This document shows positions 14,080 to 48,572 of a DNA stretch of 64,000 nt, in pieces. The stretch is from an uncultured Gammaproteobacteria bacterium. GTDB taxonomy: Bacteria > Patescibacteriota > Patescibacteriia > Magasanikbacterales > UBA922. The notes beneath the pieces were generated by a model, which did not search any database, was not told the origin of the DNA, and saw only the letters and a program-made list of their open reading frames with translations. The stretch's first letter is position 1. Each line of letters starts with the position of its first letter. The stretch is from the NCBI GenBank assembly GCA_964597575.1, contig CAZQXB010000001.1, positions 778,892 to 842,891 on the forward strand. The letters are read 5' to 3'. Position numbers and translations under genes: made by a program.

Positions 14080-14994
14080 TTACACCACATTCCACAATTT
14101 TTTCATCTCAAGCACTCCCTCTTCTAAAGAAATTATCGGCTCCCAGCCTAAAAGAGTTTTTGCTTTATCATTATCGGCTTTAGTAAAACGAACATCGCCC
14201 AAACGTGGCGGTACAAACTGTGTCTCCCCACCAATTAATTTGGCCAGGGCATTTACAGAAACAGGTTGGCCATTCCCAATGTTAATACACTCCCCTTTTC
14301 CAACCGTTGTTGCTGCCATGGCCAAAACATTGGCACGGGCAATATCTGACACGTGCGTGTAATCTCGATAATATTCGCCATCGCCACAAATCGTCATGGG
14401 TTCCCCCTTCCGGCGCTGTTCTAAGAACTTTCCGATGACAAGTGCATAGGCTCCTTGTGGATCCATGTAAGGACCATACACATTAAAGTAACAGAGTGCC
14501 ACCGTTTCAAGGCCATAGAGAGATGAAAAAAGACGGCAATACTCTTGCCCTGCCAACTTTTGCAGCGCATAAGGGCTTTGTGGATCGGGCTTCATGTCTT
14601 CGGTAATCGCCACATCCCCGCGATTTCCACCATAGATAGAAGATGACGTGCTAAAAATGACCCGCTTCACTTTCGCATCCCGTGCCGCCAAAAGAACATT
14701 CAGGGTTCCGTTAACATTGTGATCGTTTGTTATAAGTGGCTGCTCTACCGAAAATGGTACGCGCGGAACTGCCGCCAGATGAAAGACACCGTCGACACCC
14801 TGAACCGCCGAAGCGACTGCGCTCAAATCTCGAATATCTCCCTCACGATACTCAACCCCTTCAATGACTCGTTCAGGAAAACGCCCTCCCAAATAATTAT
14901 CAAACACGCGTACCGCATGACCTTCTGACAAAAGTTGTTTCACCAAGTTCGTTCCGATAAATCCTGCTCCCCCAGTAACAAGATACAGTGCCAT
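14080..14994 (-). CDS. NAD-dependent UDP-sugar 4-epimerase (GalE/WbpP-like SDR)
   Basis: 304 aa with GGAGFIG, YxxxK (SPYALQK) and extended SDR epimerase architecture. Confidence 0.75.
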   Translation of the reverse strand: MALYLVTGGAGFIGTNLVKQLLSEGHAVRVFDNYLGGRFPERVIEGVEYREGDIRDLSAVASAVQGVDGVFHLAAVPRVPFSVEQPLITNDHNVNGTLNVLLAARDAKVKRVIFSTSSSIYGGNRGDVAITEDMKPDPQSPYALQKLAGQEYCRLFSSLYGLETVALCYFNVYGPYMDPQGAYALVIGKFLEQRRKGEPMTICGDGEYYRDYTHVSDIARANVLAMAATTVGKGECINIGNGQPVSVNALAKLIGGETQFVPPRLGDVRFTKADNDKAKTLLGWEPIISLEEGVLEMKKLWNVV

Positions 14995-15004
14995 AAAGAA
15001 AAAA

Positions 15005-16390
15005 TTATTCTTTGGTACCCATGTATGGTGAACCTACTGCAATAATAGAAAACCCCGCATCTCTTAACTCACTAAAACGATGCTGAAGCATACGCCTGCC
15101 ATCCATAATAAGTGGCCGCTTCTTTTCTCCGAGAAGCAGATCGCCGAGACCGCGAAACTGCGGCCAATCGGTCGCAACGATGACCACATCAGCGCCTTTC
15201 ACTGCTTCGTATTCATGCGAGGCATAGGAAATCACCGTGTCAACTGGAAATTCTTTTTGGAAACCTTCCATAGCTGCAGGGTCGTATAACTGAATACGAG
15301 CCACACCTTTTTCACGCAAAAATTGGACCATGGAAATACTTGGGGAGTTGCGAATATCATTGGTATCACGTTTAAATGCCAAACCAAGAATCGCGACCGT
15401 TTTACCGCTCCAAGAGAAATGCGCTTCTTTCTCTGCACGAGCCAAGAAAAGTTCGAGTTGGCGCTTATTCGCTAAATAGGTTTCATTCACAAGCACTGCC
15501 TCGGTTCCCGCCATTTGTAATTGATGCGACAGTGATCGTGCATCTTTAATAAAACAGCTTCCGCCCGCATATACACTGTCGTAAAAACCCCAGGTACCGA
15601 TACGAGGGTCGCTCGTCATAATGCGACGAATCGTTTCAAACTGCACATCAGGAAAGGCTTCACAGGTTCGACCAACAACATCAAAACACACCGCTAGTCG
15701 ATTGAAGAGATAAAAATTGGCTAACAGTTTTCCAGCAGCAGCTTCTTTCGGATTCACCTCCAAGTATTGAACCGTTGGTGAATCATGAAATCGTTGATAA
15801 ATTTCACGCATCACTAAAAAATCTTCCTCTCGCCATGCCCCAACCACAATACGATCGGGCTTGAGAGAGCCCGCAATCGCCTTTCCTTCAACTAAAAATT
15901 CTGGATTCGAAACCACACCCACGTGCTTTACACCGGCTTCTTCCAAAATGGCGTCGGTACGAAGCACCATATCAATCGGTACCGTACTCTTATTCACAAC
16001 CACAAGCCGCTTCGTTTGCGCTCCCCCATTTCGTTTTGTGAGTGCTTCGGCCAATTGAGCGGCCGCAGTATTGTAGTACGTCAAATTACTTTCCCCTGTT
16101 TCTCCAATTTCAGGAGTAGGCAAACACATAAACACCGCGTCACAGGTGTCTAAAAAGGAAGAAAGATCGGCGTAGTTGGTACTGAAGGTGATTCGATCTT
16201 TGTGGCGAATGAGCAAATCCGATAAGCCTTCCTCAAAAAGACACGATTCAATGGCCTCACGGTTTCCTGATCCTAATTTTTGAATTTTTCGCTCATCAAC
16301 ATCGTAAACAAACACTCGGTGCCCGCTGTCCGCTGAAACGGCCGCCGAGCACGAGCCAACAAAGCCTGCCCCGATGTAGGCGATGTTCAT
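15005..16390 (-). CDS. Nucleotide-sugar dehydrogenase (UDP-glucose 6-dehydrogenase family)
   Basis: 461 aa with an N-terminal GAGFVGS Rossmann fold and a UDPG/MGDP dehydrogenase central/C-terminal layout. Confidence 0.8.
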   Translation of the reverse strand: MNIAYIGAGFVGSCSAAVSADSGHRVFVYDVDERKIQKLGSGNREAIESCLFEEGLSDLLIRHKDRITFSTNYADLSSFLDTCDAVFMCLPTPEIGETGESNLTYYNTAAAQLAEALTKRNGGAQTKRLVVVNKSTVPIDMVLRTDAILEEAGVKHVGVVSNPEFLVEGKAIAGSLKPDRIVVGAWREEDFLVMREIYQRFHDSPTVQYLEVNPKEAAAGKLLANFYLFNRLAVCFDVVGRTCEAFPDVQFETIRRIMTSDPRIGTWGFYDSVYAGGSCFIKDARSLSHQLQMAGTEAVLVNETYLANKRQLELFLARAEKEAHFSWSGKTVAILGLAFKRDTNDIRNSPSISMVQFLREKGVARIQLYDPAAMEGFQKEFPVDTVISYASHEYEAVKGADVVIVATDWPQFRGLGDLLLGEKKRPLIMDGRRMLQHRFSELRDAGFSIIAVGSPYMGTKE

Positions 16391-17328
16391 ACTTGGGTAC
16401 GGAAGTAATCAATCGTAATCTGGAGTCCGGTTTTCAAATCAAAAGTGGGTTCCCAATCTAAGAGTTGTTTTGCTTTTGTAATATCAGGGCGGCGGCGTGT
16501 GGGGTCATCTTGAGGAATAGGGCGATACACCACTTCACTTTGTGTTTTTGTGGCCCCTCGCACCCGTTCAGCAAATTCAGTAATCGTTATTTCTTCTGGG
16601 TTTCCTAAGTTAATTGGCCCGGTAATCGCGAGTGGTGATTCCATCATCGCGATAAAACCACGGACCAGGTCGTCTACGAAACAAAAACTGCGTGTTTGGC
16701 TGCCGTCGCCAAAAACCGTCATTTGCTCGCCACGAAGCGCCTGAAGAACGAGGTTTGAAACCACTCGCCCATCGTCGAGTGCCATTTTCGGCCCATAGGT
16801 GTTAAAAATACGCACCACCTTAATCGGTACGCCAAATCCGCGATGATAATCAAAAAAGAGCGCCTCGGCACACCGCTTGCCTTCGTCATAACATGCGCGT
16901 GGACCAATACAATTCACTGATCCTCGATATTCTTCATACTGCGGATGAATTTCAGGGTCGCCATACACCTCAGATGTTGACGCCTGAAGAATCGTGGCTC
17001 CTTTTTCTTTTGCCACCTCAAGCACATGCATCACACCAACGGTATTGGTTTGAATGGTGTGGATTGGATTTTTTTGATACTGCACGGGCGACGCAGGGCA
17101 AGCCAAATTATATATTTCGTGCACTGGCTCATCGATAGAAAATTGTTCAATAATGTCGTGTTCAATGAGCACAAAGTCCGGGTGAACCAAAAGCGCCTCG
17201 ATGTTCTTCTTTGATCCTGTTGAAAAATTATCAACACAAAGAACCCGATTTCCTCTTTCCAAAAGCCGCTCACACAGATGTGAACCAATAAACCCGGCTC
17301 CACCCGTCACCAGAATTGTCTTTTTCAT
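16387..17328 (-). CDS. UDP-glucuronate decarboxylase (UDP-xylose synthase, UXS)
   Basis: 313 aa with STSEVYGDP and RACYDEGKR blocks, very close to canonical UXS. Confidence 0.85.
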   Translation of the reverse strand: MKKTILVTGGAGFIGSHLCERLLERGNRVLCVDNFSTGSKKNIEALLVHPDFVLIEHDIIEQFSIDEPVHEIYNLACPASPVQYQKNPIHTIQTNTVGVMHVLEVAKEKGATILQASTSEVYGDPEIHPQYEEYRGSVNCIGPRACYDEGKRCAEALFFDYHRGFGVPIKVVRIFNTYGPKMALDDGRVVSNLVLQALRGEQMTVFGDGSQTRSFCFVDDLVRGFIAMMESPLAITGPINLGNPEEITITEFAERVRGATKTQSEVVYRPIPQDDPTRRRPDITKAKQLLDWEPTFDLKTGLQITIDYFRTQV

Positions 17329-17339
17329 AAAAACCTCGT

Positions 17340-19212: not shown

Positions 19213-20097
19213 CTAACGAAAACGTGTTTTTATAAACACAGACACTCTTCCAAAGAGGGTAATGAGTGCAAGAAGAGAAAACTTTCGCAAACCAGTATAC
19301 TGCTTTCTTACAAAAAGTGACAGGCTCAAAAGAAAGTGTTTTAAGCGTTCGGCATCGTGAGTTCGCGTATAACTTCCACCATACACATGCATAACGGGTG
19401 GCGTCGCAATAACTCGCACGTCGAAACCCTTCCGTTTTAACCGCCACGCAAGATCAGTCTCTTCAAAATACATAAAGTACTCCTCACCCAAAAATCCCAC
19501 CTCTTTCAAAGCACTCATCCGCAAAAGACAGGCGGCTCCGGTTGCGTAATCGACGGGAAGTCCGTCTGGCGGAATGGTCTGTGGAAACACGGCCATATCA
19601 TGAAACCATGCCCGGACACGACTCGGCAAAAAGCTCGTAACGGGAAGTAGATACCGAAGAACGTTAAAAAATGTAGGAAAGTATCCCCCTACGGATTGAA
19701 GCGTCCCATCCGGGTACACCATTTGCGGCCCGACCATCGCAACTTTGGGATGGTTATCCAAATAGCCGACGAGCGACTGAAGCGTCTCTTCGTGTACTTC
19801 CGTATCACTATTTACAAGCCAACCATAGGTTTCATCAAGGCAATTTTGTAGCGCCCGATTATTTGCTTTTCCAAATCCTAAATTAGCTTCATTCACGATA
19901 AGCACCACGTCCGGAAATTCTGCTTTGACCATCTCCGCACTTCCGTCGGTTGAGGCGTTATCGACCACAATAATTTTTTTCAAAGAAAAACTGCTTTTGT
20001 GCAAAGCCAGAAGAGCCCGACGAGTAAGCTCACGCGTATTGAAACTGACGACGATGGCCACAACAGTGCTAGCGCTTTGGGCATTCATACAAATCAA
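19213..20097 (-). CDS. Glycosyltransferase family 2 (paralog of 17340-18203)
   Basis: 294 aa with IVVDNASTDGS and the shared block EMVKAEFPDVVLIVNEANLGFGKANN. Confidence 0.8.
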   Translation of the reverse strand: MICMNAQSASTVVAIVVSFNTRELTRRALLALHKSSFSLKKIIVVDNASTDGSAEMVKAEFPDVVLIVNEANLGFGKANNRALQNCLDETYGWLVNSDTEVHEETLQSLVGYLDNHPKVAMVGPQMVYPDGTLQSVGGYFPTFFNVLRYLLPVTSFLPSRVRAWFHDMAVFPQTIPPDGLPVDYATGAACLLRMSALKEVGFLGEEYFMYFEETDLAWRLKRKGFDVRVIATPPVMHVYGGSYTRTHDAERLKHFLLSLSLFVRKQYTGLRKFSLLALITLFGRVSVFIKTRFR

Positions 20098-22210
20098 AGA
20101 TCACTTTAAAATACCCAACACTATCTGTCTTCGTACACCGTGAAGCTACGACATTTCGAATGACTTCTTCAGGGTCTTTCTGCCATGCTAAAAATTGCGT
20201 AAGCCAGACCCGCTCATGACGCTCTATAATATCTTCTACGTGAGAAAGTACTTCGGGGTCTGTATTCCCGCTAATTCGCTGATGCGGATAAATGGCACTG
20301 ACTTCAATCGGAGCGGTTTGATATACCCGAAATGATGGTGGCGGCTCAACTCCCTCAAGCCCATAGAATATTACTACATCTTGCGGTTCAGTTTTTGCAC
20401 CAAGCGCCTCTACGGCTTGACGCCAAGGTTCTCGTCCAAAAAGCGGATGAAAAAGATACAAAGCCAGAGTAATACTGTATGCCACACCCACTGCCCCTAT
20501 AATCCAGGATCCGGCTTTTTTTGAACGCTCAAGCAGAGCAACGCACCCATGAATAAGAGTAAGAGCGAGGAGCGGGTAGAGGGTAGCGTGATATCGCGGA
20601 TCAAAGAGGGAAACTTTGGTCGCCGATACGACCAGTGCCAAAGCAAAGGCAATACCACTTACAAACACAAGTGGCTGCACTTGTTTCCAGGCATATCGGC
20701 AGGCCATAAAAAGAACTGCACCGACCCCGATTGCCGCAAGCCCAATTACCGCGGTTGGCCAATACCAGTGCAAATGGTTCATGTCCGTAATCCCTACTCG
20801 CCCACCAAGAAATCCTAGTACAACAATCGCCGGGATTTGCCACCATGGTATGGTGAGAAAATGAGCAGCATCTTCATGGAGACGGGCCTCGGCTAAAACG
20901 TATACCCATGGCACATACAAAAGAAAAAGAGTGCCAACCGACAGAAGAAGTGCTTTAGTATCAATTCGACGCCAAAGTGCATAGACCAGCTGACCGACCA
21001 GCACAAACAAAATAGGGTAAAAGGTATAGAGAAGAATAATCGAGATCAAAAGGAAAGAAAGAACAGAACGTCTTTCTTTTGGTGAAGCCAAAAATCGTTC
21101 AAAACACATCCACTGAATAAGTGTGAGAAGTATAACAACCATCGACGACCGAAGCTCGCCTGCATAGTATAGGACAAACGGCGAGAGTGCCACGAGCCCG
21201 AGCGCGCTGTTCAGTACCCACGATTTTTTTTCAGGATACAACGTACGTACTCGCGCATAGAGGAGAAGAGTAAAAAGAATGAACGCCATCACACTCACTC
21301 CCCGAAGGATCGTTACCGATGGCGGAAAAATGAAAAGAAGAGTGTGGAGGAAAATATAGTATAGCGGCGGATGAAGATCGGTATGAATGGAACGATACAC
21401 TATTTCTCGCACACTATCTTGCGCAAACGACCAAGACAGTCCTTCATCGAGCCAAACCGATTGTCGCAGAGCAAGGCCAATGACCAGAAGTCCAAACGAA
21501 AGAAATCCTAAAAAGACACGGTGATTGGTCCAAATTCTTTGTGCCGTATAGCGCACGACCTGGCATGCAAACAAAAAATATTCCTTACTGTTGAGCTTTG
21601 AAACACTGTGCTTTCTCATGCGAAACGTAAATGGAAATTCTTTTACCGTCTGGTATGAACCCTTTACTAGAATTTCGAGAAGAATCTTATACCCGGTTGT
21701 GGTAAGCACGGTGTTTGCAATAACCTCTTTTTTCATGAGAAAAAAACCACTGAGCGGATCTTCTGTTCGAGTTAACTTTCTCGCCGCCCACACCCCACAC
21801 TCTGAGGTCATTCGCCGCCACCAGGCCCAAGATTCCACTTTGCTCGTTTCCCCAAAACGACTACCAATCGCGATATCTCCTCCGGCACGAAGGGCTGCAA
21901 TCATCTGAGGGAGAATCGAAGGATCATGGCTGAGGTCAGCATCCATTACCCCAACAAGATCTCCTTTGGCCACCGCAAATCCAGCACGCACTGCACTTCC
22001 AAGACCGGCCTTACCAGGGCGCTCAATGAGGTGAATCGGATATTTTTTCATGAGTTCTTTTACTACCATGGCCGTTTTGTCCGGAGAATTATCATCAACA
22101 ATAATATACTCAACATCTTCGTTCCGAAGATGTTCTGCAACCTCCTCAAGAAGAAGGGGCACATTTTTTGCCTCATTATAGGTAGGAATAATAAGAGAAA
22201 TACGAGACAT
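20069..22210 (-). CDS. Fusion protein: N-terminal GT2 polyprenol-phosphate sugar synthase (Dpm1-like) plus C-terminal polytopic GT-C/PMT-like membrane domain
   Basis: 713 aa. The N-terminus reads IIPTYNEAKN, DDNSPDKT, DADLSHDP. The remaining roughly 480 aa have at least 11 predicted TM helices. Confidence 0.7.
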   Translation of the reverse strand: MSRISLIIPTYNEAKNVPLLLEEVAEHLRNEDVEYIIVDDNSPDKTAMVVKELMKKYPIHLIERPGKAGLGSAVRAGFAVAKGDLVGVMDADLSHDPSILPQMIAALRAGGDIAIGSRFGETSKVESWAWWRRMTSECGVWAARKLTRTEDPLSGFFLMKKEVIANTVLTTTGYKILLEILVKGSYQTVKEFPFTFRMRKHSVSKLNSKEYFLFACQVVRYTAQRIWTNHRVFLGFLSFGLLVIGLALRQSVWLDEGLSWSFAQDSVREIVYRSIHTDLHPPLYYIFLHTLLFIFPPSVTILRGVSVMAFILFTLLLYARVRTLYPEKKSWVLNSALGLVALSPFVLYYAGELRSSMVVILLTLIQWMCFERFLASPKERRSVLSFLLISIILLYTFYPILFVLVGQLVYALWRRIDTKALLLSVGTLFLLYVPWVYVLAEARLHEDAAHFLTIPWWQIPAIVVLGFLGGRVGITDMNHLHWYWPTAVIGLAAIGVGAVLFMACRYAWKQVQPLVFVSGIAFALALVVSATKVSLFDPRYHATLYPLLALTLIHGCVALLERSKKAGSWIIGAVGVAYSITLALYLFHPLFGREPWRQAVEALGAKTEPQDVVIFYGLEGVEPPPSFRVYQTAPIEVSAIYPHQRISGNTDPEVLSHVEDIIERHERVWLTQFLAWQKDPEEVIRNVVASRCTKTDSVGYFKVIFDLYECPKR

Positions 22211-22212
22211 AC

Positions 22213-39299: not shown

Positions 39300-40065
39300 A
39301 AAGAATAGTCAGATTTTTTATGGAAATCCAAAGCGGCATCCGCCTTGAAGCATGTTCTTTGGCAAACACTTCTGGTACGGGTTCCTGAATACGTCGGCCG
39401 ATACCCGTGTAGGTTAGTCTTCGTTTACGACCCCGAGTTCCGCCTGAACTGTACGCAGCATCATCAAGAGGCGAGCGAGTAAGATGTGAGACATGCCAGT
39501 AACGCTCTTTCATCCACAACACCTCTGCCACCTCAAAAAAAACGTGATTCTCGCTATCACGGAGCATATCGTGGTCATAATCCCCTGCCCAATGCACTCC
39601 TCGTGTTTTTTTAAATGCTCGCGGAGAAAACCAACCCTGCTTCCCAAGCATATGGTACGCACCCTCTTTGCGTGTCTCGTGGAAAATATCACCAACGCAC
39701 AGATAAAACGGCACGATAACACACTCTGCATTAGGCTGACTGATTAAACGGAGCAGCTCTTCCCCTCCGCGTTTCGTCCAAATCTCATCTCCGTCAACAA
39801 TAAGGCACCACTCGGTATTTGTTCTTTCAATCATTTCTTGCCGAAGCGCGGTATGGCGCACACGGTCACACGGCCCCTTCTCTTCAAAAAGAATTTTTTC
39901 TGGAAACTCTCTCCTGACTCGCTCAATAATTTCAACCGTTGCGTCGGTTGATCCGGTATCAAATACCATGACTTGGTCGGCAAATGAAACAACCGAACGA
40001 AGTACGGCTTCAATAAAACACTCTTCATTTACGACAATACAGTGGACTGTAAATTTCGAAGGCAT
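39268..40065 (-). CDS. Glycosyltransferase family 2-like protein
   Basis: 265 aa with MVFDTGSTDAT and IVDGDEIW (DxD). Confidence 0.65.
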   Translation of the reverse strand: MPSKFTVHCIVVNEECFIEAVLRSVVSFADQVMVFDTGSTDATVEIIERVRREFPEKILFEEKGPCDRVRHTALRQEMIERTNTEWCLIVDGDEIWTKRGGEELLRLISQPNAECVIVPFYLCVGDIFHETRKEGAYHMLGKQGWFSPRAFKKTRGVHWAGDYDHDMLRDSENHVFFEVAEVLWMKERYWHVSHLTRSPLDDAAYSSGGTRGRKRRLTYTGIGRRIQEPVPEVFAKEHASRRMPLWISIKNLTILFVKRARRYVS

Positions 40066-40067: not shown

Positions 40068-41399
40068 TTACAAAGTAACAAGTGTTTTTCTCCGACGAAC
40101 ATACTCTGCGGCCACAACAGTATAGACATTCATAAGAAAGACTGTTCCAAAAAACGAGAAACTTGCTCCAATCACCCCAAATTGGGGAATAAGCACCATG
40201 TTAGCGCCAATCGTAATTGCAAGCTGAAGCACTCCTCCAATAGCAAGCACTTTCGTTGCATTTAATGCTGAAATCATGAGTGACCATGGCAGGGCAAGAA
40301 AATTGAGCAAAATACTATAACTCAAAATAACATAGACATTCATGGAGGCTGCGTACTCCGGCCCAAAAAGAAGAGGGAGAAAAACTTTAGACGGATAAAT
40401 AAAAAGTGCCAAACAAATTACTAAGGGGATAATTTTTCGATACATTGCTTTAAGCAATGTTTGCATTTCTAATACCGTTGCTTTCGCACTCATTTTTGGT
40501 GCAAGAACTGTTGTAAGCGACTGCAGCATATAGGTATAGAACACAATGAGTTGCATGCCGGCACTGTAAATGGCCACGTCTTTTACCGATAAATACCGAC
40601 TGATGAGTGTTTGATCAACCCGAGAGGCAATGATAATAAGAAAAGACCATATCATAACCCAAACACTAAACGAAAAAAGTTTCTGCCTCATTATAGCAAC
40701 CTCCTCGGAAGGAATAATGGTCCGTGAAAATCCTTTGGGTAACTGAGGAAGAGTTCCCAAAGTAACAAGCCACGGCACCGTAATATAGGCAAGAAGGAGG
40801 AGGCGAAGATCAAGAACCCCACAAAATACTAAACCCGCCACAAAAACAAACCGCAAAGTCCCTTTTATGGCATTCACTCGGGCAGCCGCCAAAAAACGTT
40901 GCGTCGCTTGCAAATAGACACTAATTGCTGCCGATAAAATAACCCCTCCCACGCCGAGAAAGGCGAGTTGAAAATACGGAGTGAGTGCTTCTTCATGATA
41001 CAAATGACGCGCTAACACCCCGGAGAGCAAAAGTCCACCAAGGGTAATACACAGAGTAAGGAAAAGGCGCCAACGCCACATCAATTTCACAAGGACCTTT
41101 AGTTTACTTTCTTCATGCTGGGCATAATAGTACGATGCAAAACGAAGAAAAGCGGCATTTAATCCAAAATCTGACAAATCGGTTACAGCCCCCAACACCA
41201 GAAGCGCCAACCCAAACATACCAAAAGCTTCTTGGGAAGTACTTCTTGCTAAAACTAAATTGGTCGCAAAAAGAGCAACATTATTTACAAACGAGCCAAT
41301 ATACACAACCGAAACATCACGGAACGCTTTCAGTTGAAATGTATTTCGAAGCACCTGAAACATACAGCTAATCAATAACCCGCTCTCCGTTTGTTGCAT
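40068..41399 (-). CDS. Oligosaccharide flippase (Wzx / polysaccharide biosynthesis protein, MOP superfamily)
   Basis: 443 aa with about 12 TM helices and a Wzx-like N-terminal region. Confidence 0.7.
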   Translation of the reverse strand: MQQTESGLLISCMFQVLRNTFQLKAFRDVSVVYIGSFVNNVALFATNLVLARSTSQEAFGMFGLALLVLGAVTDLSDFGLNAAFLRFASYYYAQHEESKLKVLVKLMWRWRLFLTLCITLGGLLLSGVLARHLYHEEALTPYFQLAFLGVGGVILSAAISVYLQATQRFLAAARVNAIKGTLRFVFVAGLVFCGVLDLRLLLLAYITVPWLVTLGTLPQLPKGFSRTIIPSEEVAIMRQKLFSFSVWVMIWSFLIIIASRVDQTLISRYLSVKDVAIYSAGMQLIVFYTYMLQSLTTVLAPKMSAKATVLEMQTLLKAMYRKIIPLVICLALFIYPSKVFLPLLFGPEYAASMNVYVILSYSILLNFLALPWSLMISALNATKVLAIGGVLQLAITIGANMVLIPQFGVIGASFSFFGTVFLMNVYTVVAAEYVRRRKTLVTL

Positions 41400-42114
41400 C
41401 TTCCCCTTCTACCCCAAGAAAAGAGTGAGAGACTACCCGGGTTCCTGACCAATACGCAGGCAAAAGAAATTCGGCCGGATAATCAAGAAGTGCAAAAGGA
41501 AGTGAAGACCACAGGGCCCGACGCCACCGCCAAAATTCGTAGCCAGGAAACCCATAGGCACGGGTCGAGAGATACTTAGGGCGGAGAAGCCGACCATGAA
41601 GCCCTGGCCCCTCCCAAGACGTAAGAGTGGCTTTAGGGGTAAGGATATAGCGTCCGCTCACCTTATAATACCACGATGCGCCTTTTGGTATGGTAGGGGC
41701 GAGCGCTAAAAGCATGGCAATTTCACCGAGACTTTTGAGCCGACTATCAACCAGGCGTCGCACCAGCCAGTGCTTTCCAACATGAACCACGCGAATGTCT
41801 GTATCTTCTAAAAGCTCTAGGGGTAATTTAGAGCTTCCCTCTGCCACAATAATACTGACTTTCCCAAAAAGACGTTTCACTGAAGCAATGGTTTCTTTGG
41901 TCTGTTTCAGCCGATCGAGAGGCGCATACACCGAGCGGACTGGCGTGTAGCTGAGGGGTTTTGTTGTCGGCTGGATAACCGACGTAATTATGACACACGG
42001 CGAAGCACTCGTCGTCGGTCGAGACCGCTTCCAAAACAACGCAGCCACAAAAACCATGACTTGCCACGGCCAAACCACACACACTCGGTACAGTTGTCGA
42101 AAAACAAAAAACAT
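41368..42114 (-). CDS. Hypothetical protein (N-terminal TM; possible nucleotide-sugar transferase fold)
   Basis: 248 aa with no confident family match. Confidence 0.45.
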   Translation of the reverse strand: MFFVFRQLYRVCVVWPWQVMVFVAALFWKRSRPTTSASPCVIITSVIQPTTKPLSYTPVRSVYAPLDRLKQTKETIASVKRLFGKVSIIVAEGSSKLPLELLEDTDIRVVHVGKHWLVRRLVDSRLKSLGEIAMLLALAPTIPKGASWYYKVSGRYILTPKATLTSWEGPGLHGRLLRPKYLSTRAYGFPGYEFWRWRRALWSSLPFALLDYPAEFLLPAYWSGTRVVSHSFLGVEGEDATNGERVID

Positions 42115-42123: not shown

Positions 42124-42792
42124 TTACCCCTCTCGTTTGGCTTGATAGATAAACTGAATTGCAAAAAATTCTGGAAATGAATGAAGAAGGGGTTTGAGTG
42201 GATACCCGAGGCGACGCAAAAATCGCTCGTGCGATCCTGAACAGGGACGCGCAGACTCTACCAGATATCCCGCACTCTGTATCATCTCAGTCGCCGTTTT
42301 TTTGGTAAAAAAACGAAGGTGCGTTCGATCAAGAATTCCTGCATCCTCATAGGTAAAACGACCACAAAGGAGAGCTTTACGAATAGAGTAATGTGCAATG
42401 TTTGGCATGGAGATCACCAGTTTTCCTTGTGGAGCAAGGAGGGGCCGAAGACGTTGAAGTACTTTGACTGGGTCAACCATGTGTTCAAGAACGTCTGCCA
42501 AAAAAAGAACGTCAAATTGACCGGCCTCTGCTGCATGCCGCTCAATAAATTCTTCCACCGTCTCTTGAAATAACTTCGCATACCCAACACTTGAGGCATC
42601 ACGAAAAAGGGTCTCAACCGGCTCAATTCCCCACACCTCACACTTTTTTTCATGAATAAGGTACTCCCCCATATATCCACTTGCTGTTCCAACCTCAAGA
42701 ACACGGCTCTTCGCAGGAACTGTTTCTAAAAGAAGCTGGTGTGTACTAAACGGAGCAGGGTCGTATCGATATGTTCTTTTGGAATTATTCAT
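42124..42792 (-). CDS. Class I SAM-dependent methyltransferase
   Basis: 222 aa with VLEVGTASGYMG, DVLFLADVLEHM and ISMPN. Confidence 0.75.
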   Translation of the reverse strand: MNNSKRTYRYDPAPFSTHQLLLETVPAKSRVLEVGTASGYMGEYLIHEKKCEVWGIEPVETLFRDASSVGYAKLFQETVEEFIERHAAEAGQFDVLFLADVLEHMVDPVKVLQRLRPLLAPQGKLVISMPNIAHYSIRKALLCGRFTYEDAGILDRTHLRFFTKKTATEMIQSAGYLVESARPCSGSHERFLRRLGYPLKPLLHSFPEFFAIQFIYQAKREG

Positions 42793-44311
42793 AGAGGGTC
42801 TGTTTTACTCGGGCACGAATAAGTAAAAAGAGTGGATACCCCCACACACCGAGAGCGACTATGGCACCGAACCAAAAAAACGGAGTTGGGTCATTGTGTA
42901 TGGACGTGTTTGAGATGAACCACAAGGGATAAAAGAAAAACGGTGCGGAACATATCCAAATCCACAGTCGTTTCGGCAGGCGAATAAGGTTCCGGCGTAT
43001 ACAGTACCAAGCAAACGGCAAAAGCCACGCAGTATACCACGGCCAAAAAGATTTTTGCCAAACCATAAGGAAAACGAGGAAGGAAAGAGTGATTGCACCT
43101 ACGGTCTGTTCTTCACCCCACACCGTTCGAAAGAAAAGTGCCTGAAATGCTTTTTTTATCAGTGGCCAAAGGAGCCAGACAAGAAGAACGAAGAGTGTGC
43201 CTTGAACACCCCGAGTTAAATACCAGTGGTATCCTTCACCAAGAAGCGACTGTGACAGTGGTTTTAATCCGTAGTATACAGTGGAAAATAAACTCATGAC
43301 CGCCCATTTTGACTGCATGAGAATAGGGGTAAACACTTTTGGACCATTCCAATATGGTGCCCACGCGGCAACAGTGAGAACGGTTACGACGCCACCCCCG
43401 AGGAGCAGATCTTTCAAGCGCACTGACCAATTTTTTCCCGTATCCTGCCACCACCACAAGAAAAACCATGGTGCTGTAAAAAGCGGAAGAAATTTAAGCC
43501 ACACCCCAACCATCAAAATCCCCGCCACAAAAACCCACTGACGGCTCCGAGCAAAAATGATTGCTAACAAAACAGTGATCACCCACAGCGCATCAAAGTG
43601 ACCATTCGTCACCCATTCAAAAAGAAGAATCGGAAAAAAGAGAAGCCAAATTTTTTTTTGAGATGTTGGTACTTCCTTTTCCAAAAGTTGTGAAAGGAGA
43701 AAAACTAAAAAAATCAAAGCTCCCACCATGAGCATCTTCCACAAAAAGAGAAATAAAAATGGATTTCCTTGGCTCGCTTTTTCTACGAGCACAAAAAGGT
43801 CAGCTGCAAGCGGACCGTACGAAAAGCCATGCACCGTGCTATCGGGCAAAGTATTCCCCGCAAACACATAGGAACGAGGCCAGGATTCGACAAACGGGTT
43901 CACCCCCTCAAGAATAGCTTGCCCTGCGGCTCGATAATACGTCATGTCGCTTGAACCGAGCGGAACAATAAGAAACGCAAGGCAGGCCACCAGTGGAAAA
44001 AGCCAACGATAGGTTGCTTTAGAAAAAAGCTCCTCCCTCTTTAAAAGAAAAGTGGTGGCGCCAGCAAAGAGTATTCCGACAAAAATAAGAAGAGCACCAA
44101 TACCCACAGCCTGGAGAGTAGTCGTTGGGGCCTGGCAGGTGAGCCAACCCACTTGCCACGCGCAAACACCGACAAGCGAACGGTACCACAAAAAAAGTGA
44201 CGGCACAGCAAGAATACCAAAGCCAAACAGAAGGGTGAGAAGTGGGGCCTCGCGGCGAAGACGAGCGATCATAGAGGACGACGAATAGTGGCAATAAGAG
44301 ATACCCCCCAA
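42785..44311 (-). CDS. Polytopic membrane protein, putative GT-C type glycosyltransferase (hypothetical)
   Basis: 508 aa with about 13 TM helices and Trp-rich loops. Confidence 0.5.
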   Translation of the reverse strand: MGGISYCHYSSSSMIARLRREAPLLTLLFGFGILAVPSLFLWYRSLVGVCAWQVGWLTCQAPTTTLQAVGIGALLIFVGILFAGATTFLLKREELFSKATYRWLFPLVACLAFLIVPLGSSDMTYYRAAGQAILEGVNPFVESWPRSYVFAGNTLPDSTVHGFSYGPLAADLFVLVEKASQGNPFLFLFLWKMLMVGALIFLVFLLSQLLEKEVPTSQKKIWLLFFPILLFEWVTNGHFDALWVITVLLAIIFARSRQWVFVAGILMVGVWLKFLPLFTAPWFFLWWWQDTGKNWSVRLKDLLLGGGVVTVLTVAAWAPYWNGPKVFTPILMQSKWAVMSLFSTVYYGLKPLSQSLLGEGYHWYLTRGVQGTLFVLLVWLLWPLIKKAFQALFFRTVWGEEQTVGAITLSFLVFLMVWQKSFWPWYTAWLLPFAWYCIRRNLIRLPKRLWIWICSAPFFFYPLWFISNTSIHNDPTPFFWFGAIVALGVWGYPLFLLIRARVKQTLYE

Positions 44312-45009
44312 GGAAGTGTGCCGAGAAGACGAAACATCCCGTATTCAAAAAAATAAGGAATACTCATGACTCCGGAAATAAATGGTGACACTGGCCGGAC
44401 GTCTGACGTTTTTTTCTCTTTTTGAAACAAACGCATATACTGCCGAACCAAGACTACCCCCGGCAAAATAGTGGCATGAATCCAGCCAATACGGCTTTCT
44501 TTCGCAACGGAAGTAATCAGCGAGCGGAATGTCTTTTTAGTATACCGACGCTTATGGTGCAGAGCTACGTCGTGATACGACCAAAGGCTTGGGTGAGCCG
44601 GAACCGTGACCACAATAGTGCCGCCCGGCTTTACGACGCGATACAATTCCTTCATGACCTGCTCATCGTTATCGACATGCTCAATCATATCAAGCGCCGT
44701 AACGACATCAAATGACGCATCAGGGAATGGCAAGGCCGTAGCCTCTCCGAGGGTAACTCGCTGGCCTTTTTTTTCACAAAATGACTTTGCAAGAGGACTC
44801 ATATCAAGACCTTCAGCCGCAAAACCAAGCTCACTCAATTCTAAAAGAACTGCCCCGGTGCCACACCCCACATCGAGTGCCCGAAGTGAGCCTTCTGACG
44901 CACGAACCCCATTGTGTTCTAGGGCGAGACGCAAAAAATGACGCTTGGCTTTAAACCACCAATGGTCCTGCTCCAAAATATTCATTGATGCGTACTCCTC
45001 TTGTTCCAT
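44269..45009 (-). CDS. Class I SAM-dependent methyltransferase
   Basis: 246 aa with ALDVGCGTG, DVVTALDMIEHV and VKPGGTIVV. Confidence 0.75.
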   Translation of the reverse strand: MEQEEYASMNILEQDHWWFKAKRHFLRLALEHNGVRASEGSLRALDVGCGTGAVLLELSELGFAAEGLDMSPLAKSFCEKKGQRVTLGEATALPFPDASFDVVTALDMIEHVDNDEQVMKELYRVVKPGGTIVVTVPAHPSLWSYHDVALHHKRRYTKKTFRSLITSVAKESRIGWIHATILPGVVLVRQYMRLFQKEKKTSDVRPVSPFISGVMSIPYFFEYGMFRLLGTLPWGVSLIATIRRPL

Positions 45010-45012: not shown

Positions 45013-45771
45013 CTAACGATATTTACCACTGACACGGTTCGATAGCATTTGCCCGAGTTCCTGAAGCGAGCGAATAACGGCCTGAAATACTTTTACCCGG
45101 GAATCATCATCGTGGGCCCAAGCAACCGGCATTTGACGAACAGGGATTTTGTGAATATGCGCGATATAAAGAAGCTCGGTATCAAACCCCCAGCGATCAA
45201 TGCGAGCCCGAGGAAAAATGACATCAGCCGCATCCCTATGAAACGCTTTAAACCCGCACGTAAAATCTTTAATTCCTGGAACCAAAAGGTTAGAAAGTTT
45301 CGTAAAACCATGACCCAAAAAGGTACGGATCGATGACTCACTTTTTTGAATTGCGGAACCCTCCAATCGCCGACTCCCGATAACAATACGATCGGTTGGC
45401 GCCAGGACCTCCAAAAGATGATTAAATTCAGTAAGTGGAGTCGCGAGATCGATATCAAAAAATAAAACCCACTCACCTTTTGCATGTTTTGCCCCTTGTC
45501 GGACCGCGTATCCTTTCCCGTGGTTTTCAGAATAGGTGACAAGTTCGAACTGATATCTTTTCTGATACTCACGAAGCATTTTTTCTGTCTCATCTTTTGA
45601 TCCGTCATTCACAAAAAGAATTTCTACCGGCATCGGCACTGATTGAAAAAAAGAAAAAATCTGGTCAATCGTCTTAGGGATACGTCGTGTTTCGTTATAC
45701 ACCGGAATAACAATAGAAAAACGCGGTCGCTCCATATTAATTAAGAGAATATTTCTTGATAAGCTCTTCAC
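45013..45771 (-). CDS. Glycosyltransferase family 2 (polyprenol-phosphate sugar synthase-like)
   Basis: 252 aa with IVIPVYNE, VNDGSKDET and FDIDLATP. Confidence 0.8.
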   Translation of the reverse strand: MKSLSRNILLINMERPRFSIVIPVYNETRRIPKTIDQIFSFFQSVPMPVEILFVNDGSKDETEKMLREYQKRYQFELVTYSENHGKGYAVRQGAKHAKGEWVLFFDIDLATPLTEFNHLLEVLAPTDRIVIGSRRLEGSAIQKSESSIRTFLGHGFTKLSNLLVPGIKDFTCGFKAFHRDAADVIFPRARIDRWGFDTELLYIAHIHKIPVRQMPVAWAHDDDSRVKVFQAVIRSLQELGQMLSNRVSGKYR

Positions 45772-47749
45772 GAGTGGCTCCTAAATCAATACCCGAGGAA
45801 ACTGCGAGATCTAACGTTTTCTTCACTGCTTCTTTTTGACTTGTTACGTCATAGAGCCACAGAAGCCGAATCCAGCTCTCACGAATTTTCGGATCACTCT
45901 CCACGGCCCCCTGAAGCAAGGCCTCGGCTTCGGCAAATTTTCCTAAACGGGTCTTAATCGTAGCAAGCGTAAACGCAAGCTGTTGGCGCTTTGGCGAAAA
46001 AGGGATTGCTTGCTGCATGATCTCTTCAGCCTGAACAAGATATGATTGCTTTCCAGTAAGAACCGCCTGTTGCTCAAAGAGACTCGCCAATTGAATATTA
46101 ATACGCACATCGCGAGGATGAAGTGTGTGATTTTTTTCAAGCTCAAGAGCAGCTTTTACAAGAAACGCTTCAGCAAGCTCTTTCTGTTTTTGCTCGGCCA
46201 GTGGCCCAGCCACCTCGCCCATCACTCTCCCGACATCGTTACGCACATCATCAATATGTGGCGTAGGGATAGCAAGTGTTTCATCGTAGAGGGCAATAGC
46301 AGCTTGTGGGTTTCCATACACCGCCTGAACCGTTTTGAGCGCAGATTGGTTTGCGCGTTTTGGACTTATGTCCGTACTATATAAAAGTAAAAGTACAATG
46401 ATCCCAGCCCCAAGTACTGACGGCCAAGAAATCGCTTTTTTTGCTTCCCCTGTTTTTGCATGCTCACCCATGACGTAACCTGCGAGAAGAGCTAAAAAGA
46501 AGAAAAACGAAAGATACGAAGTCGGATTTTCAAAAACAAACAAGTTATGAACTAGGTGAGCTACAGTAAACCCGACCATCACAATAGCTGTTGCACTATT
46601 TATTCTTCCCGATTTCACGAGCCTGAAAATGGTATACACGGCAGCAGCAAATAACCCTAAATAACTTGCCACCCCAAGAACCCCCTGCGTCGCGAGGGTA
46701 TTCATGATCACGTTATGGGCATTATCGAACCAGGTTTCTCCATACCCAAACCGTAAAAATTCTGGACGATAAAATTCGTTAAAGGCGTAATAATAATTAT
46801 TCGGCCCCCATCCAAACACCGGTTTTGCTTTCCAGGCCTCAAAAGCCACTTTCCAGGCCATTAAACGGGTGCTTGCCGTCCCCTCAGAAAGCTCAGTGTT
46901 CAAAAGCGGGCCAAGCGAAGGGATCTCGCGGATAAACGAAGTCTGTCGAAACGAAACAAGCAAGGCTAAAACAATGACACCGAGAGCAATAACTCCGAGC
47001 GCAGGACGCCGAACTTTCGCATCAAAACGATACTTCCATAGTGTTAAAATGCTTATAATTCCAAGACCACTGAAAACCCCAAGGAGTGTTCCTCGAGTTC
47101 CACCCATGAAAATACCGAGAAATCCAAGAAAGGCACCAACGAGATAGGCGTATCGAACTGACATTTTAGCCACAGTGTCTTCAAAAAACATCCAGACTCC
47201 GAGAGCTAAAATAAACAAACCGTATCCACTTAAATAAATAGGGTTTCCGAGTGTTGCCGAAACACGGGTTGCCCCACGATTCAAAAACCACTCTGGATCA
47301 ATTTTTTGCCGCACCGCAAGAAGCATGACTAAGCTCCCTACCCCCAAAGCGACACGCTCAAGGAATCTCCAATCTTCTTTTTTCCGAATAACCGAGGAAA
47401 GAATAAGTGCGTAGGCGCCATAATGAAGCAAGGTAAAAAGACCAAGCATGCGCTCGTGGTTATTCCACAAACTTTGGTATGGATCTACTCCGAAAATGGT
47501 CGACAAAAGCCAGCTGAACAAAAAAGCGCACAAAACAAACACGAGGGCGATCTTTTTTGGAGCATACGCTTTTACATCTGAAAAGAGTAAGACGCTATAT
47601 ACTCCGATCATCACAAGAACGACCGAACGAAAAAAAAGAATTTTTGGTACGATAAAAGGAAAGATATAATCCGATGGGAACACCATGAGTGGCACGAGAA
47701 ACGCAATGGCTCCAAGACCAAGAATCACCCTCTCAAGAATTCGCTGCAT
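45737..47749 (-). CDS. O-antigen ligase (Wzy_C) family membrane protein with C-terminal TPR repeats; candidate O-oligosaccharyltransferase
   Basis: 670 aa with about 12 TM helices, a Wzy_C-like periplasmic loop (STRLMAWKVAFEAWKAKPVFGWGPNNY) and a C-terminal roughly 220-aa TPR-like helical region. Confidence 0.75.
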   Translation of the reverse strand: MQRILERVILGLGAIAFLVPLMVFPSDYIFPFIVPKILFFRSVVLVMIGVYSVLLFSDVKAYAPKKIALVFVLCAFLFSWLLSTIFGVDPYQSLWNNHERMLGLFTLLHYGAYALILSSVIRKKEDWRFLERVALGVGSLVMLLAVRQKIDPEWFLNRGATRVSATLGNPIYLSGYGLFILALGVWMFFEDTVAKMSVRYAYLVGAFLGFLGIFMGGTRGTLLGVFSGLGIISILTLWKYRFDAKVRRPALGVIALGVIVLALLVSFRQTSFIREIPSLGPLLNTELSEGTASTRLMAWKVAFEAWKAKPVFGWGPNNYYYAFNEFYRPEFLRFGYGETWFDNAHNVIMNTLATQGVLGVASYLGLFAAAVYTIFRLVKSGRINSATAIVMVGFTVAHLVHNLFVFENPTSYLSFFFFLALLAGYVMGEHAKTGEAKKAISWPSVLGAGIIVLLLLYSTDISPKRANQSALKTVQAVYGNPQAAIALYDETLAIPTPHIDDVRNDVGRVMGEVAGPLAEQKQKELAEAFLVKAALELEKNHTLHPRDVRINIQLASLFEQQAVLTGKQSYLVQAEEIMQQAIPFSPKRQQLAFTLATIKTRLGKFAEAEALLQGAVESDPKIRESWIRLLWLYDVTSQKEAVKKTLDLAVSSGIDLGATREELIKKYSLN

Positions 47750-47752
47750 ACA

Positions 47753-48532
47753 CTAGTAGATATGTTCGTCAAACCAGATTTCTTTGATTGCAACTTCAGC
47801 TTCTTTTACTTGGGCATTTGGAACACTGACCGCAAGATACCAATCATTCAGCACATTCGGAACCACGAGAAGTGATCGTCCGTTTGCATTACTTGTCACC
47901 TTAAATGCAGTATAGTCGCCCAATGTTCCGGCAATAAGCCGGCCAGTCCCCCGTAAACCTAACTGCGTGATAAGCTCAGCCTCTGGAGTTGAGGTGGTGA
48001 GGCAGGAAAAACATTTTGGACTAAACCCTGAAATAGACGGAAGTGCTTCACCCTTTCCATACCACCACACCAGCGTTTCTGTTTTCCCTCGGGCGGTTGA
48101 GGTAACAAAACTCATGCGATAGATATCAATACCTTTTTCTTTTGTAACAACAGGGCTCCCCCACGCTTGGTTGTAGCACATGGTAAGTGATGTTCCGCCG
48201 AGCACATACACCTCATCACCCCGACTCCGGCAGGTATTTGCGAAATCATATCGCACCATAACCAATTCAAATTCCTCTCTACTCGAAACCCGGGCACCAA
48301 AGCGATCACGACAAAACTTTTGTCCCTCATCGAGAACAGGAAATATTGGTGGACAAACACAGTACGGAGCAGTTGAAGTAACATCTCCGCCAGAAGCTTC
48401 GCACGACAGCGCTAAGGTCGCCCGCTCACGTTCACGGGCTTCTTTCTTTATATAGAGATACGAAGAAACGATAAGTACCGAAAAGAAAAGCAGATACCCA
48501 ATACCTTGGAAAATAGAGCGAGGAGAAGTCAT
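47753..48532 (-). CDS. Hypothetical membrane-anchored Cys-rich protein
   Basis: 259 aa with an N-terminal TM helix and at least 10 Cys. It is the first gene after the promoter at 48544-48572. Confidence 0.5.
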   Translation of the reverse strand: MTSPRSIFQGIGYLLFFSVLIVSSYLYIKKEARERERATLALSCEASGGDVTSTAPYCVCPPIFPVLDEGQKFCRDRFGARVSSREEFELVMVRYDFANTCRSRGDEVYVLGGTSLTMCYNQAWGSPVVTKEKGIDIYRMSFVTSTARGKTETLVWWYGKGEALPSISGFSPKCFSCLTTSTPEAELITQLGLRGTGRLIAGTLGDYTAFKVTSNANGRSLLVVPNVLNDWYLAVSVPNAQVKEAEVAIKEIWFDEHIY

Positions 48533-48543
48533 ATAATGACGCC

Positions 48544-48572
48544 ACTATACCATGAGGGAAAGAACCCGTCAA
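48544..48572 (-). promoter_or_regulatory. Near-consensus sigma70 promoter (TTGACG-17-TATAGT) giving a near-leaderless start for the long minus-strand operon
   Basis: On the minus strand, TTGACG (48572-48567), a 17-nt spacer and TATAGT (48549-48544). Only 11 nt separate the -10 from the ATG at 48532. Confidence 0.55.

Follow-up and report, generated by a model that had tools for sequence, protein, structure and literature searches.

A compact, co-oriented surface-glycan locus in a small Patescibacteria genome, with a predicted near-leaderless head and candidate internal promoters

Introduction

The closest described counterparts of the locus reported here are the capsule (cps) loci of Streptococcus pneumoniae and the Wzx/Wzy clusters of monoderm bacteria, the O-antigen (rfb) clusters with their WaaL ligase, and the S-layer glycosylation (slg) clusters of Geobacillus and Paenibacillus, together with the O-oligosaccharyltransferase systems of the PglL/PilO type. 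Leaderless mRNAs, which the head of the locus brings to mind, occur in Actinobacteria, Deinococcus and archaea. The locus lies in a 64,000-nt stretch of DNA (the window; positions 778,892–842,891 of contig CAZQXB010000001.1, assembly GCA_964597575.1) from a member of the Patescibacteria, or Candidate Phyla Radiation (CPR), a group whose cell envelope is still poorly understood in its structure and assembly (PMC5220378). It is one compact surface-glycan biosynthesis locus of a small genome (~0.9 Mb or more). The explanation that we favor, with a probability of about 0.7, is that its 29 genes are transcribed from a promoter at the head (P1) and from two internal promoters (P2 and P3), are translated by coupling and direct the synthesis of a lipid-linked glycan.

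In its layout the locus resembles the cps loci and the monoderm Wzx/Wzy clusters: the genes are co-oriented and placed between conserved flanks, and conserved 5′ genes are followed by variable, serotype-like genes for glycosyltransferases (GTs), a flippase and modification enzymes. As in Wzx/Wzy clusters, a likely initiating transferase, a MOP-family flippase, multiple GTs and nucleotide-sugar enzymes are found. The size is comparable too, since pneumococcal cps loci span 10.3–30.3 kb (PMC1391919); an initial reading made from the sequence without database searches (the sequence-only reading) had called the locus unusually large, and it is better placed at the upper end of co-oriented glycan loci. 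Unlike cps, it has neither CpsABCD-type regulators nor a Wzz-type polysaccharide co-polymerase (PCP), its initiating transferase is encoded outside the operon on the opposite strand, its conserved 5′ genes encode a small anchor protein and a WaaL-like protein with a tetratricopeptide repeat (TPR) domain, it encodes several GT-C-type proteins, and its 34.5 kb belong to a genome of ~0.9 Mb.

With the O-antigen clusters the locus shares Wzx, many GTs and nucleotide-sugar genes, and the product of gene 2 combines a Wzy_C domain with a WaaL fold; this putative ligase is retained in relatives with differing glycan genes, the behavior expected of one with relaxed donor specificity. Unlike O-antigen WaaL, the gene 2 product is predicted to carry an additional transmembrane helix and an outward-facing TPR domain, and the window is without lipopolysaccharide (LPS) genes. 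The CPR genomes studied so far lack genes for lipid A and LPS (PMC5220378), and lipid A-core is therefore an improbable acceptor. A further difference is that the predicted 0–5-nt leader leaves no room for the JUMPStart/ops element of O-antigen clusters. As in the slg and PglL/PilO systems, the glycan cluster adjoins a gene for a large secreted Ser/Thr-rich protein, and protein could receive a lipid-linked glycan from an enzyme of the Wzy_C family. Unlike in slg, the large protein here has no recognized S-layer or S-layer homology (SLH) domain, and its glycosylation is putative. To our knowledge, neither WsaB nor PglL has been described as fused to a TPR domain. The locus is a large, extremely compact example of a well-known type of co-oriented glycan locus, and what appears particular to the CPR is the high share of a tiny genome, a WaaL-like-TPR enzyme in the expected absence of LPS, the several GT-C-type proteins and the conserved near-leaderless head.

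Related loci used for comparison were L008 (GCA_013558375.1), L009 (GCA_013565695.1) and L010 (SRR29476927), in which gene 2 is 65% identical; L005 (SRR29476910), collinear with genes 4–16; L011 and L012, which are more distant (45–47% identity); and L006, more distant than L005, which holds the distal module only, behind its own terminator and promoter, in a cluster that begins at a GT2 gene matching gene 9.

An unbroken chain of 29 co-oriented genes

The open reading frame (ORF) listing gives an unbroken minus-strand chain from 48532 to 14080, comprising 29 genes in 34,453 bp (Table 1). The sequence-only reading had placed about 33 genes here; its strand and limits stand, and a total of 33 requires the inclusion of four minus-strand ORFs that lie upstream of the head terminator and encode the giant protein, the anti-sigma-like protein, the extracytoplasmic function (ECF) sigma factor and a 603-aa product (55255–57066). 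Measured between longest ORFs, the junctions are gaps of 2–11 nt or overlaps of 1–115 nt, in agreement with the tight spacing first described, and the two larger gaps, of 92 nt (34029–34120) and 73 nt (31155–31227), lie where they had been reported. The long overlaps arise because the longest ORF was taken. Starts were therefore refined by placing the start codon beside the upstream stop, and several of the refined starts agree with homologues in N-terminus or length.

A start codon adjoins the upstream stop at almost every junction, for example in ATGA at 26066 and 44272 and in TAAtATG at 45735. The refined junctions (in nt; overlaps negative) are 3, 1, 3, −4, −8, 9, 4, 2, 7, −1, −4, 92, −13 and 73 for genes 1–15, and 8, 9, −25, −4, 32, 8, −20, 2, −20, 10, 6, 11, −4 and 10 for genes 15–29, so that 25 of the 28 place the start codon −25 to +11 nt from the upstream stop, the exceptions being the two larger gaps and the 32 nt before 25197. 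The median junction is 3 nt and non-coding DNA amounts to 290 of 34,453 nt (99.2% coding). Co-directional genes with operon-like spacing, as in a single operon, are thus found throughout. Shine-Dalgarno (SD) sequences occur at 3 of 29 operon starts and at 4 of 16 other starts, compared with 19% of random positions. Because starts lie beside upstream stops and few have an SD sequence, ribosomes probably pass along the chain by coupled termination and reinitiation.

TGA serves as a stop codon in the locus, consistent with the standard code. The G+C content is 0.41–0.43 over genes 10–13 (window 32000–39000) versus 0.45–0.48 in the rest of the locus; a similar dip is seen for serotype-specific membrane-protein genes in other glycan loci. 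The locus occupies 3.8% of the 913,817-bp source contig, and the window 7%.

Gene content and predicted product

Domains were assigned by Pfam and NCBIfam profile searches (Table 1). Nine GT2 and two GT1/GT4 enzymes are supported by Pfam, and up to five more membrane proteins are GT-C-like, with weaker support; the earlier figure of at least 14 GTs is plausible on this basis without being firm, as 11 are Pfam-supported and the remainder would have to come from the GT-C-like group. Three stand-alone methyltransferases are accompanied by one fusion of a short-chain dehydrogenase/reductase (SDR) with a methyltransferase. The AsnB-type, radical SAM, flippase, methyltransferase and sugar-nucleotide genes that the sequence alone had suggested are all present by domain assignment. 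The AsnB-type enzyme (gene 17) would amidate a uronic acid, and a phosphoglycosyltransferase gene on the opposite strand, outside the operon, likely supplies the initiating enzyme.

Genes 1, 5, 7, 10 and 12 gave no Pfam or NCBIfam match, even at E ≤ 1. Gene 5, also unmatched in the Pfam copy searched, encodes a protein that aligns over its full length, at 60% identity, with an L005 protein annotated with PF26314 (the MptA_B GT-C family). Genes 10 and 12 are paralogues (34% identical) of a family with six matches among 5.8 billion proteins, each from a glycan cluster of similar kind; the L005 counterpart of gene 12 is 79% identical, and G40-D41 in the first loop of the protein is invariant. The gene 12 model (pLDDT, the predicted local distance difference test score, 62) gave weak Foldseek matches (E 8e-3 to 0.3, TM-score 0.26–0.39), and the top 20 matches in the PDB were all GT-C enzymes or GT-C-like proteins (Emb, STT3, ArnT, ALG9/12, PglB and the GPI-transamidase subunit PIG-U). 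The position of gene 22 is occupied in L006 by a PMT_2 gene.

The gene 2 product matches Pfam Wzy_C (PF04932) at 72.2 bits (cut-off 31.7), and TPR. Its model (pLDDT 85.6) has as best PDB match WaaL (7tpg_B; E 5.3e-7, target-normalised TM-score 0.61); a PDB sequence search matched TPR proteins alone, and the WaaL match required the predicted structure. The family is large, with homologues at 42–47% identity, and those with a source name (about a dozen among 120 listed) are almost exclusively from Patescibacteria or Candidatus Magasanikbacteria. R219, R295 and H345 are invariant in 25 homologues and are candidates for the conserved catalytic Arg and His of the outer loop in this family. The thirteenth transmembrane helix is preceded by a Lys-rich loop and followed by the TPR domain, which should therefore face outward in the modeled topology. 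The ligase of the sequence-only reading thus corresponds to this Wzy_C protein, a candidate glycan ligase or O-oligosaccharyltransferase: its conservation (65%) beside variable glycan genes points to such an enzyme, relaxed in its choice of donor, more than to a polymerase of repeat units.

Gene 1 encodes a protein with one transmembrane helix, a positive-inside anchor at the N-terminus. An exhaustive search found homologues in 12 representative clusters among 1.84 billion proteins. A word-indexed search had matched the query alone, as if gene 1 were an orphan; this view was discarded on finding positional homologues through the contexts of gene 2, namely 260-aa proteins with 41–43% identity that share the N-terminal Met.

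From this domain content, the locus would make a polyprenyl-phosphate-linked heteroglycan that is started by the external phosphoglycosyltransferase and extended from UDP-sugars, including a uronic acid, by ~11 cytoplasmic GT-A/GT-B enzymes. The glycan would be methylated, amidated and otherwise modified, and then flipped by Wzx, and GT-C-type enzymes using polyprenyl-phosphate sugars would decorate it outside the membrane. The WaaL-like-TPR enzyme would finally transfer it to an acceptor, for which a surface protein (the giant protein, for instance) or a polymer linked to the wall is the likeliest choice. The giant protein, rich in Ser, Thr and Asn, is a plausible acceptor. Two or more distinct glycans or glycosylation systems, such as a Wzx-flipped oligosaccharide and a separate GT-C decoration, could instead be encoded here, under any model of transcription. 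The up to five GT-C-like proteins, the two small GT2 enzymes that resemble polyprenyl-phosphate sugar synthases and the module content that varies between relatives would suit such a division, but the operon has one flippase and one ligase-like gene, and co-transcription with tight coupling suggests one pathway, so that we consider several products the less probable outcome, though one to be kept in mind.

A conserved frame and a predicted near-leaderless head

The locus is entered through a frame of fixed order: ECF sigma factor, anti-sigma-like protein, giant secreted protein, terminator, promoter, small anchor protein and WaaL-like-TPR enzyme. In L008, L009 and L010 it consists of the ECF sigma factor, the DUF5667 protein, a 1,261-aa giant protein, a 92-nt spacer, a 260-aa gene and the Wzy_C gene; compared with L008, the giant protein is 78% identical, the gene 2 product 65% and the gene 1 product 43%. 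A cassette of ECF sigma, DUF5667 and giant protein genes also precedes the glycan locus in L011 and L012 as in L008, all such relatives examined (47% identity to the L012 giant protein), and L011 and L012 retain the terminator and extended −10 as well, with a longer leader or inserted genes. Downstream of gene 2 the loci differ: L008 has amine oxidase, Wzx, GT2, GT1, GT2-methyltransferase and PMT_2 genes, L010 has methyltransferase, Wzx, GT2, epimerase and AsnB-type genes, and L011 and L012 have PMT_2 pairs and GT4 arrays, partly on the opposite strand. Judging from these sequences, glycan gene content varies between relatives within a conserved frame.

Direct reading, scans and folding agree on the head terminator, whose stem (48624–48603) has 9 bp, seven of them G-C pairs, and is followed by a U-tract; it is among the few canonical terminators of the window. 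In L008, L009 and L010 the U-tract is invariant and the stem is CCCCTGGGC/GCCCGGGGG versus CTCCCTCGC/GCGGGGGAG in the window, indicative of compensatory changes. The proposal that a terminator insulates the locus from the giant gene accords with this hairpin and its retention in relatives.

P1 follows at once on the minus strand (...CTCCCTCGCttcgGCGGGGGAGTTTTGTTTTTgggtagggttcaaaggtcttTTGACGggttctttccctcaTGgTATAGTggcgtcattatATG), with TTGACG at 48572–48567, a 17-nt spacer, TGg, TATAGT at 48549–48544, and 11 nt to the ATG. It was read directly and recovered by scanning, as first described, and is conserved in relatives: the extended −10, TGGTATAGT, is invariant in L008, L009 and L010 where its flanks have diverged, with the −10 at 9 nt from the ATG and a TTGACG −35 that overlaps the U-tract at an 18-nt spacer. 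P1 matches the consensus at 10 of 12 positions plus the extended −10 TG and is by far the best sense-strand match. In the 128 kb of strand scanned (both strands of the window), only three sites reach at least 10/12 with this TG, and all three are intergenic and face a gene (tRNA-Met, the lipoprotein gene and the glycan operon); a perfect 12/12 site lies ahead of a GT4 gene at 57202. Because promoter matches sit at gene fronts, sigma-70-type promoters appear to be meaningful in this organism, and P1 would be a housekeeping-type extended −10 promoter and the main start of the operon.

Within the first 45 codons of gene 1 there is no other ATG, GTG or TTG, and the start is supported by alignment with the initial Met and membrane anchor of homologues. 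No SD sequence precedes it (anti-SD duplex energy −2.8 kcal/mol), and the −10 lies within ~12 nt of the start, at 11 nt here and 9 nt in L008, L009 and L010. The predicted transcription start site (TSS) is A48537, the seventh nucleotide after the −10, preceded by C, which would give a leader of ~5 nt; the head geometry as a whole implies a 5′ untranslated region of 0–5 nt, and of 0–3 nt in the relatives. A near-leaderless first cistron is well supported by this geometry. The position of the −10 at 9–11 nt from the start, the lack of an SD sequence and the ATG start are shared with the leaderless mRNAs of Actinobacteria, Deinococcus and archaea; unlike those, the leader predicted here is ~5 nt rather than 0.

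The near-leaderless head that was first proposed therefore holds as a prediction, and its geometry is conserved in close relatives, but it is not special to this operon, as similar geometry recurs elsewhere in the clade. TGgTATACT-N11-ATG also stands ahead of an epimerase gene (6045–7064, minus strand; window 7064–7090), L011 has a further case (TGtTATATT at 16512, 10 nt from the start), and the distances from extended −10 to start in the window and related loci include 9, 10, 11, 11, 18, 20, 22 and 24 nt. Short or absent leaders thus seem to recur in this clade. The conserved 9–11-nt spacing and the low number of SD sequences point to leaderless or short-leader initiation, and to translational coupling, as common modes in the group. 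The literature searched gave no description of leaderless genes in Patescibacteria, nor of such loci.

Candidate internal promoters and the probable extent of transcription

A search of the two larger gaps for internal promoters found in each one promoter-like element conserved in L005 (P2 and P3). For P2, the L005 gap is 87 nt long; GGCTTTTGACG is invariant, and a 17-nt spacer, TGtTATCCT and the same 51 nt to the ATG follow, while the remainder has diverged. P3 has as its L005 counterpart TTTACA-17-TACATT, 36 nt ahead of the ATG. The gap lengths are conserved as well (87–92 and 70–73 nt), and a shared element at the same spacing was reproduced by 0 of 20,000 shuffles for each gap pair. A promoter-like sequence 11 nt before the ATG of gene 11 (TTGAGA-17-TACGAT, 37525–37497) was rejected, as it lies inside coding sequence and the final T of its −10 is lost in L005. 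A 10/12 promoter-like site lies inside gene 18 (27159–27131).

Neither a custom scan for hairpins with U-tracts nor a tool scan found a canonical terminator between 14080 and 48532, and clear canonical terminators are used elsewhere in this genome, at other unit ends. No terminator-like hairpin with a U-tract occurs in either gap, where folding z-scores of +0.82 and −0.75 are no better than those of shuffled sequence, and Rfam gave no RNA element in the locus or the gaps.

The locus is probably a single long operon, transcribed by read-through from a main promoter and supplemented by at least two internal ones. Transcription would start at P1, directly after the giant-gene terminator, RNA polymerase would read through 34 kb without a canonical intrinsic terminator, and the distal 20 kb would receive additional transcription from P2, ahead of the radical SAM gene, and from P3, ahead of the following GT2 gene. 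The single transcription unit of the sequence-only reading is weakened by P2 and P3, which lie in the very gaps that it had flagged.

Several points weigh against this explanation of the locus and its product. P3 scores 8/12 in the window, and P2 and P3 are absent in L006, where the corresponding genes abut. The shuffles ignore that the two gaps of each pair are homologous, and so offer support rather than proof. No canonical minus-strand terminator was found at the 3′ end of the operon, and the terminator scans cover the intrinsic type, Rho-dependent termination being outside their reach. TSS, read-through, promoter activity and transcript extents are deduced from conserved sequence features. 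The product pathway is deduced from domain content, and its glycan acceptor is a candidate. The GT-C assignment of genes 10 and 12 rests on weak Foldseek scores (E 8e-3 to 0.3; TM-score ~0.35), none of the 29 proteins matches a Wzz/PCP chain-length regulator family, and no separate Wzy polymerase was recognized among the operon proteins, gene 2 being the sole Wzy_C protein there and genes 5, 10 and 12 encoding uncharacterised polytopic proteins.

A strict model in which P1 alone produces one 34-kb polycistronic transcript, without functional internal promoters, is in our view unlikely. Tight spacing, the lack of canonical internal terminators, the margin by which P1 outscores other sense-strand matches and the abutting of the genes that flank gap 1 in L006 are all compatible with it, but each long gap holds a promoter-like element whose sequence, spacer and distance L005 retains amid diverged DNA, and the gap lengths are kept in a locus with scarcely any other non-coding DNA. 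Three or more independent units (48532–34121, 34028–31228 and 31154–14080), with termination in the gaps by Rho or weak terminators, would likewise make use of the promoter-like elements, and could draw on the modular gene content of relatives and on the L006 cluster, which starts at a gene-9-like GT2 behind its own terminator and promoter; the absence from the gaps of a hairpin with a U-tract, their unremarkable folding and the strong canonical terminators that this genome places at other unit ends make it quite improbable. That TTGACG/TATAGT is not functional, with the hairpin as an attenuator in a long leader and expression coming from giant-gene read-through or an ECF sigma regulon, has in its favor the sigma/anti-sigma pair always encoded just upstream and the fact that terminators are never fully efficient, but is very improbable in view of the invariant extended −10 between diverged flanks, the recurrence of terminator and extended −10 even in the 45–47% relatives, the 9-bp G+C-rich stem with its long U-tract, and the absence of an identified ECF-type motif, though no systematic search for one was made.

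Organisms of this group have ~1-Mb genomes and few biosynthetic pathways. Here, 3.8% of a 0.91-Mb contig lies in one glycan locus, and the 64-kb window consists largely of envelope-glycan and surface-protein genes. By comparison, a whole Parcubacterium genome was reported to have 20 glycosyltransferases (PMC5220378). A fixed frame with differing glycan genes is the pattern of antigenically variable capsules and O-antigens. As a tentative picture, and one that we hold possible rather than probable, a Magasanikbacteria-like clade may use the conserved surface cassette as a docking site for a hypervariable, serotype-like glycan array that includes the rare GT-C-like genes 10 and 12. The WaaL-like enzyme would O-glycosylate a giant S-layer-like protein by means of its outward-facing TPR domain, and diversification of the glycan would influence how these episymbionts recognize hosts or evade phages. 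Candidates for work on CPR surfaces are the giant surface protein, the WaaL-like-TPR enzyme and the GT-C-like proteins of the rare family.

Neighbouring genes and minor observations

Table 1. Coordinates of the genes and signals of the glycan locus and its surroundings (window positions)
Feature	Coordinates	Strand	Description
ECF sigma factor	54010-54693	-	
DUF5667 anti-sigma-like protein	52695-54020	-	
Giant secreted protein	48649..52434	-	1,261 aa from M47; signal peptide, PT-rich linker, Ser/Thr/Asn-rich body
Head terminator	48593..48624	-	Intrinsic terminator of the upstream giant surface-protein gene; stem CTCCCTCGC/GCGGGGGAG, then TTTTGTTTTT
P1, head promoter	48544..48572	-	TTGACG-17-TGgTATAGT; 11 nt from −10 end to ATG 48532
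Gene 1	47753..48532	-	259 aa, N-terminal membrane anchor, Cys-rich outer domain; small lineage-restricted family
Gene 2	45737..47749	-	WaaL-like (Wzy_C) core of 12 transmembrane helices, 13th helix, C-terminal TPR domain
Gene 3	45013..45735	-	Small GT2, resembles polyprenyl-phosphate sugar synthases; refined start
Gene 4	44269..45009	-	S-adenosylmethionine (SAM)-dependent methyltransferase
Gene 5	42785..44272	-	Membrane protein with 10 transmembrane helices, GT-C candidate of MptA/MptB type
Gene 6	42124..42792	-	Methyltransferase
Gene 7	41368..42114	-	248 aa, one transmembrane helix; 247-aa gene at same L005 position
Gene 8	40068..41363	-	Wzx-type (MOP family) flippase; Polysacc_synt 61.7 bits, cut-off 28.2; ~12 transmembrane helices
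Gene 9	39268..40065	-	GT2
Gene 10	37485..39260	-	11 transmembrane helices, C-terminal soluble domain; candidate GT-C
Gene 11	35908..37485	-	Fusion of SDR (NAD-dependent epimerase/reductase) and methyltransferase domains
P2, internal promoter candidate	34080..34108	-	TTGACG-17-TGcTACTAT, 51 nt before ATG 34028
Gene 12	34121..35911	-	Very rare polytopic membrane family, candidate GT-C
Gene 13	32796..34028	-	Radical SAM enzyme
P3, internal promoter candidate	31190..31218	-	TGTACA-17-TACATT, 35 nt before ATG 31154
Gene 14	31228..32808	-	N-terminal half without assigned domain, short-chain dehydrogenase domain
Gene 15	30201..31154	-	GT2
Gene 16	29368..30192	-	Methyltransferase
Gene 17	27472..29358	-	AsnB-type glutamine amidotransferase; Pfam; TIGR01536 427.8 bits, cut-off 267.1
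Gene 18	26063..27496	-	GT1/GT4
Gene 19	25230..26066	-	Weak GT2-like, E 3.7e-4; ATGA-coupled start
Gene 20	24085..25197	-	GT1/GT4; clear SD (GGGAGGG), among few in locus
Gene 21	23381..24076	-	Small GT2, resembles polyprenyl-phosphate hexose synthases (AglJ, PpgS)
Gene 22	22213..23400	-	PMT_2-like GT-C membrane protein; 23.8 bits, below cut-off 26.1
Gene 23	20069..22210	-	GT2 domain fused to domain of ~11 transmembrane helices
Gene 24	19213-20088	-	GT2
Gene 25	18210-19202	-	GT2
Gene 26	17340-18203	-	GT2
Gene 27	16387-17328	-	SDR dehydratase/epimerase (nucleotide-sugar module)
Gene 28	15005-16390	-	Nucleoside diphosphate (NDP)-sugar 6-dehydrogenase (nucleotide-sugar module); TIGR03026 267 bits, cut-off 189.8
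Gene 29	14080-14994	-	SDR epimerase (nucleotide-sugar module)
Hairpin between operon end and convergent lipoprotein gene	14015..14043	.	U-tract solely for plus-strand transcript
Polyprenyl-phosphate phosphoglycosyltransferase	11015..12436	+	Bac_transf E 1e-54; TIGR03025 307.5 bits, cut-off 295.55

The giant protein, whose true start is M47 at 52434, matched no Pfam domain and no S-layer or SLH domain; it is a candidate glycan acceptor or S-layer-like protein. A small helix-turn-helix (HTH) gene (54885–55200, plus strand) diverges from the sigma gene and is matched by HTH_17 genes at the corresponding place in L008, L011 and L012; a bidirectional terminator lies at 55214–55237.

An exact-sequence look-up of the dehydrogenase found a 19-kb copy of the same operon 3′ end (L001), and exact-sequence look-ups of gene 1 and the AsnB-type gene matched no contig. 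A scan of reference genome contigs with the AsnB-type protein gave solely non-syntenic relatives at 31–35% identity, the best of them in Patescibacteria metagenome-assembled genomes.

In L012, a gene for a 23S rRNA intervening-sequence protein (PF05635; 9603–9953) and a ~40-nt direct repeat (aaagtcaaaaagtccacaaagtctgtaaag) lie between the head promoter and the Wzy_C gene. At the head of the L006 cluster (1224–1258), TGgTATAAT is followed by an inverted repeat, CCTCAttatTGAGG, that contains an SD-like GAGG just ahead of the GTG start and could form a translational control hairpin.

The convergent lipoprotein gene beyond the 3′ end of the operon (13543–14010, plus strand; MNLKRIALSLVIAIVSAFIGC...) lies in a stretch of higher G+C (~0.52) and has an 11/12 promoter (13416–13444), an unusually long leader of 98 nt and its own terminator (14015–14043); in the gene calls of a Logan contig, an antisense ORF (161 aa) is given at this locus instead. 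For the tRNA-Met (CAU) gene at 106–180 (plus strand), the promoter is TTGACA-17-TGcCATGAT, with 12 nt between its end and the mature 5′ end. Elsewhere (1–13147 and 55255–63996), the window encodes mostly envelope functions, with further GT4 and GT2 genes, a second Wzy_C protein (62716–63996), a GHL15 and FG-GAP protein (58404–60404), an S8 peptidase (7116–9152), a PBP2-type transpeptidase (230–2050) and a PilT-like ATPase (1986–3056).

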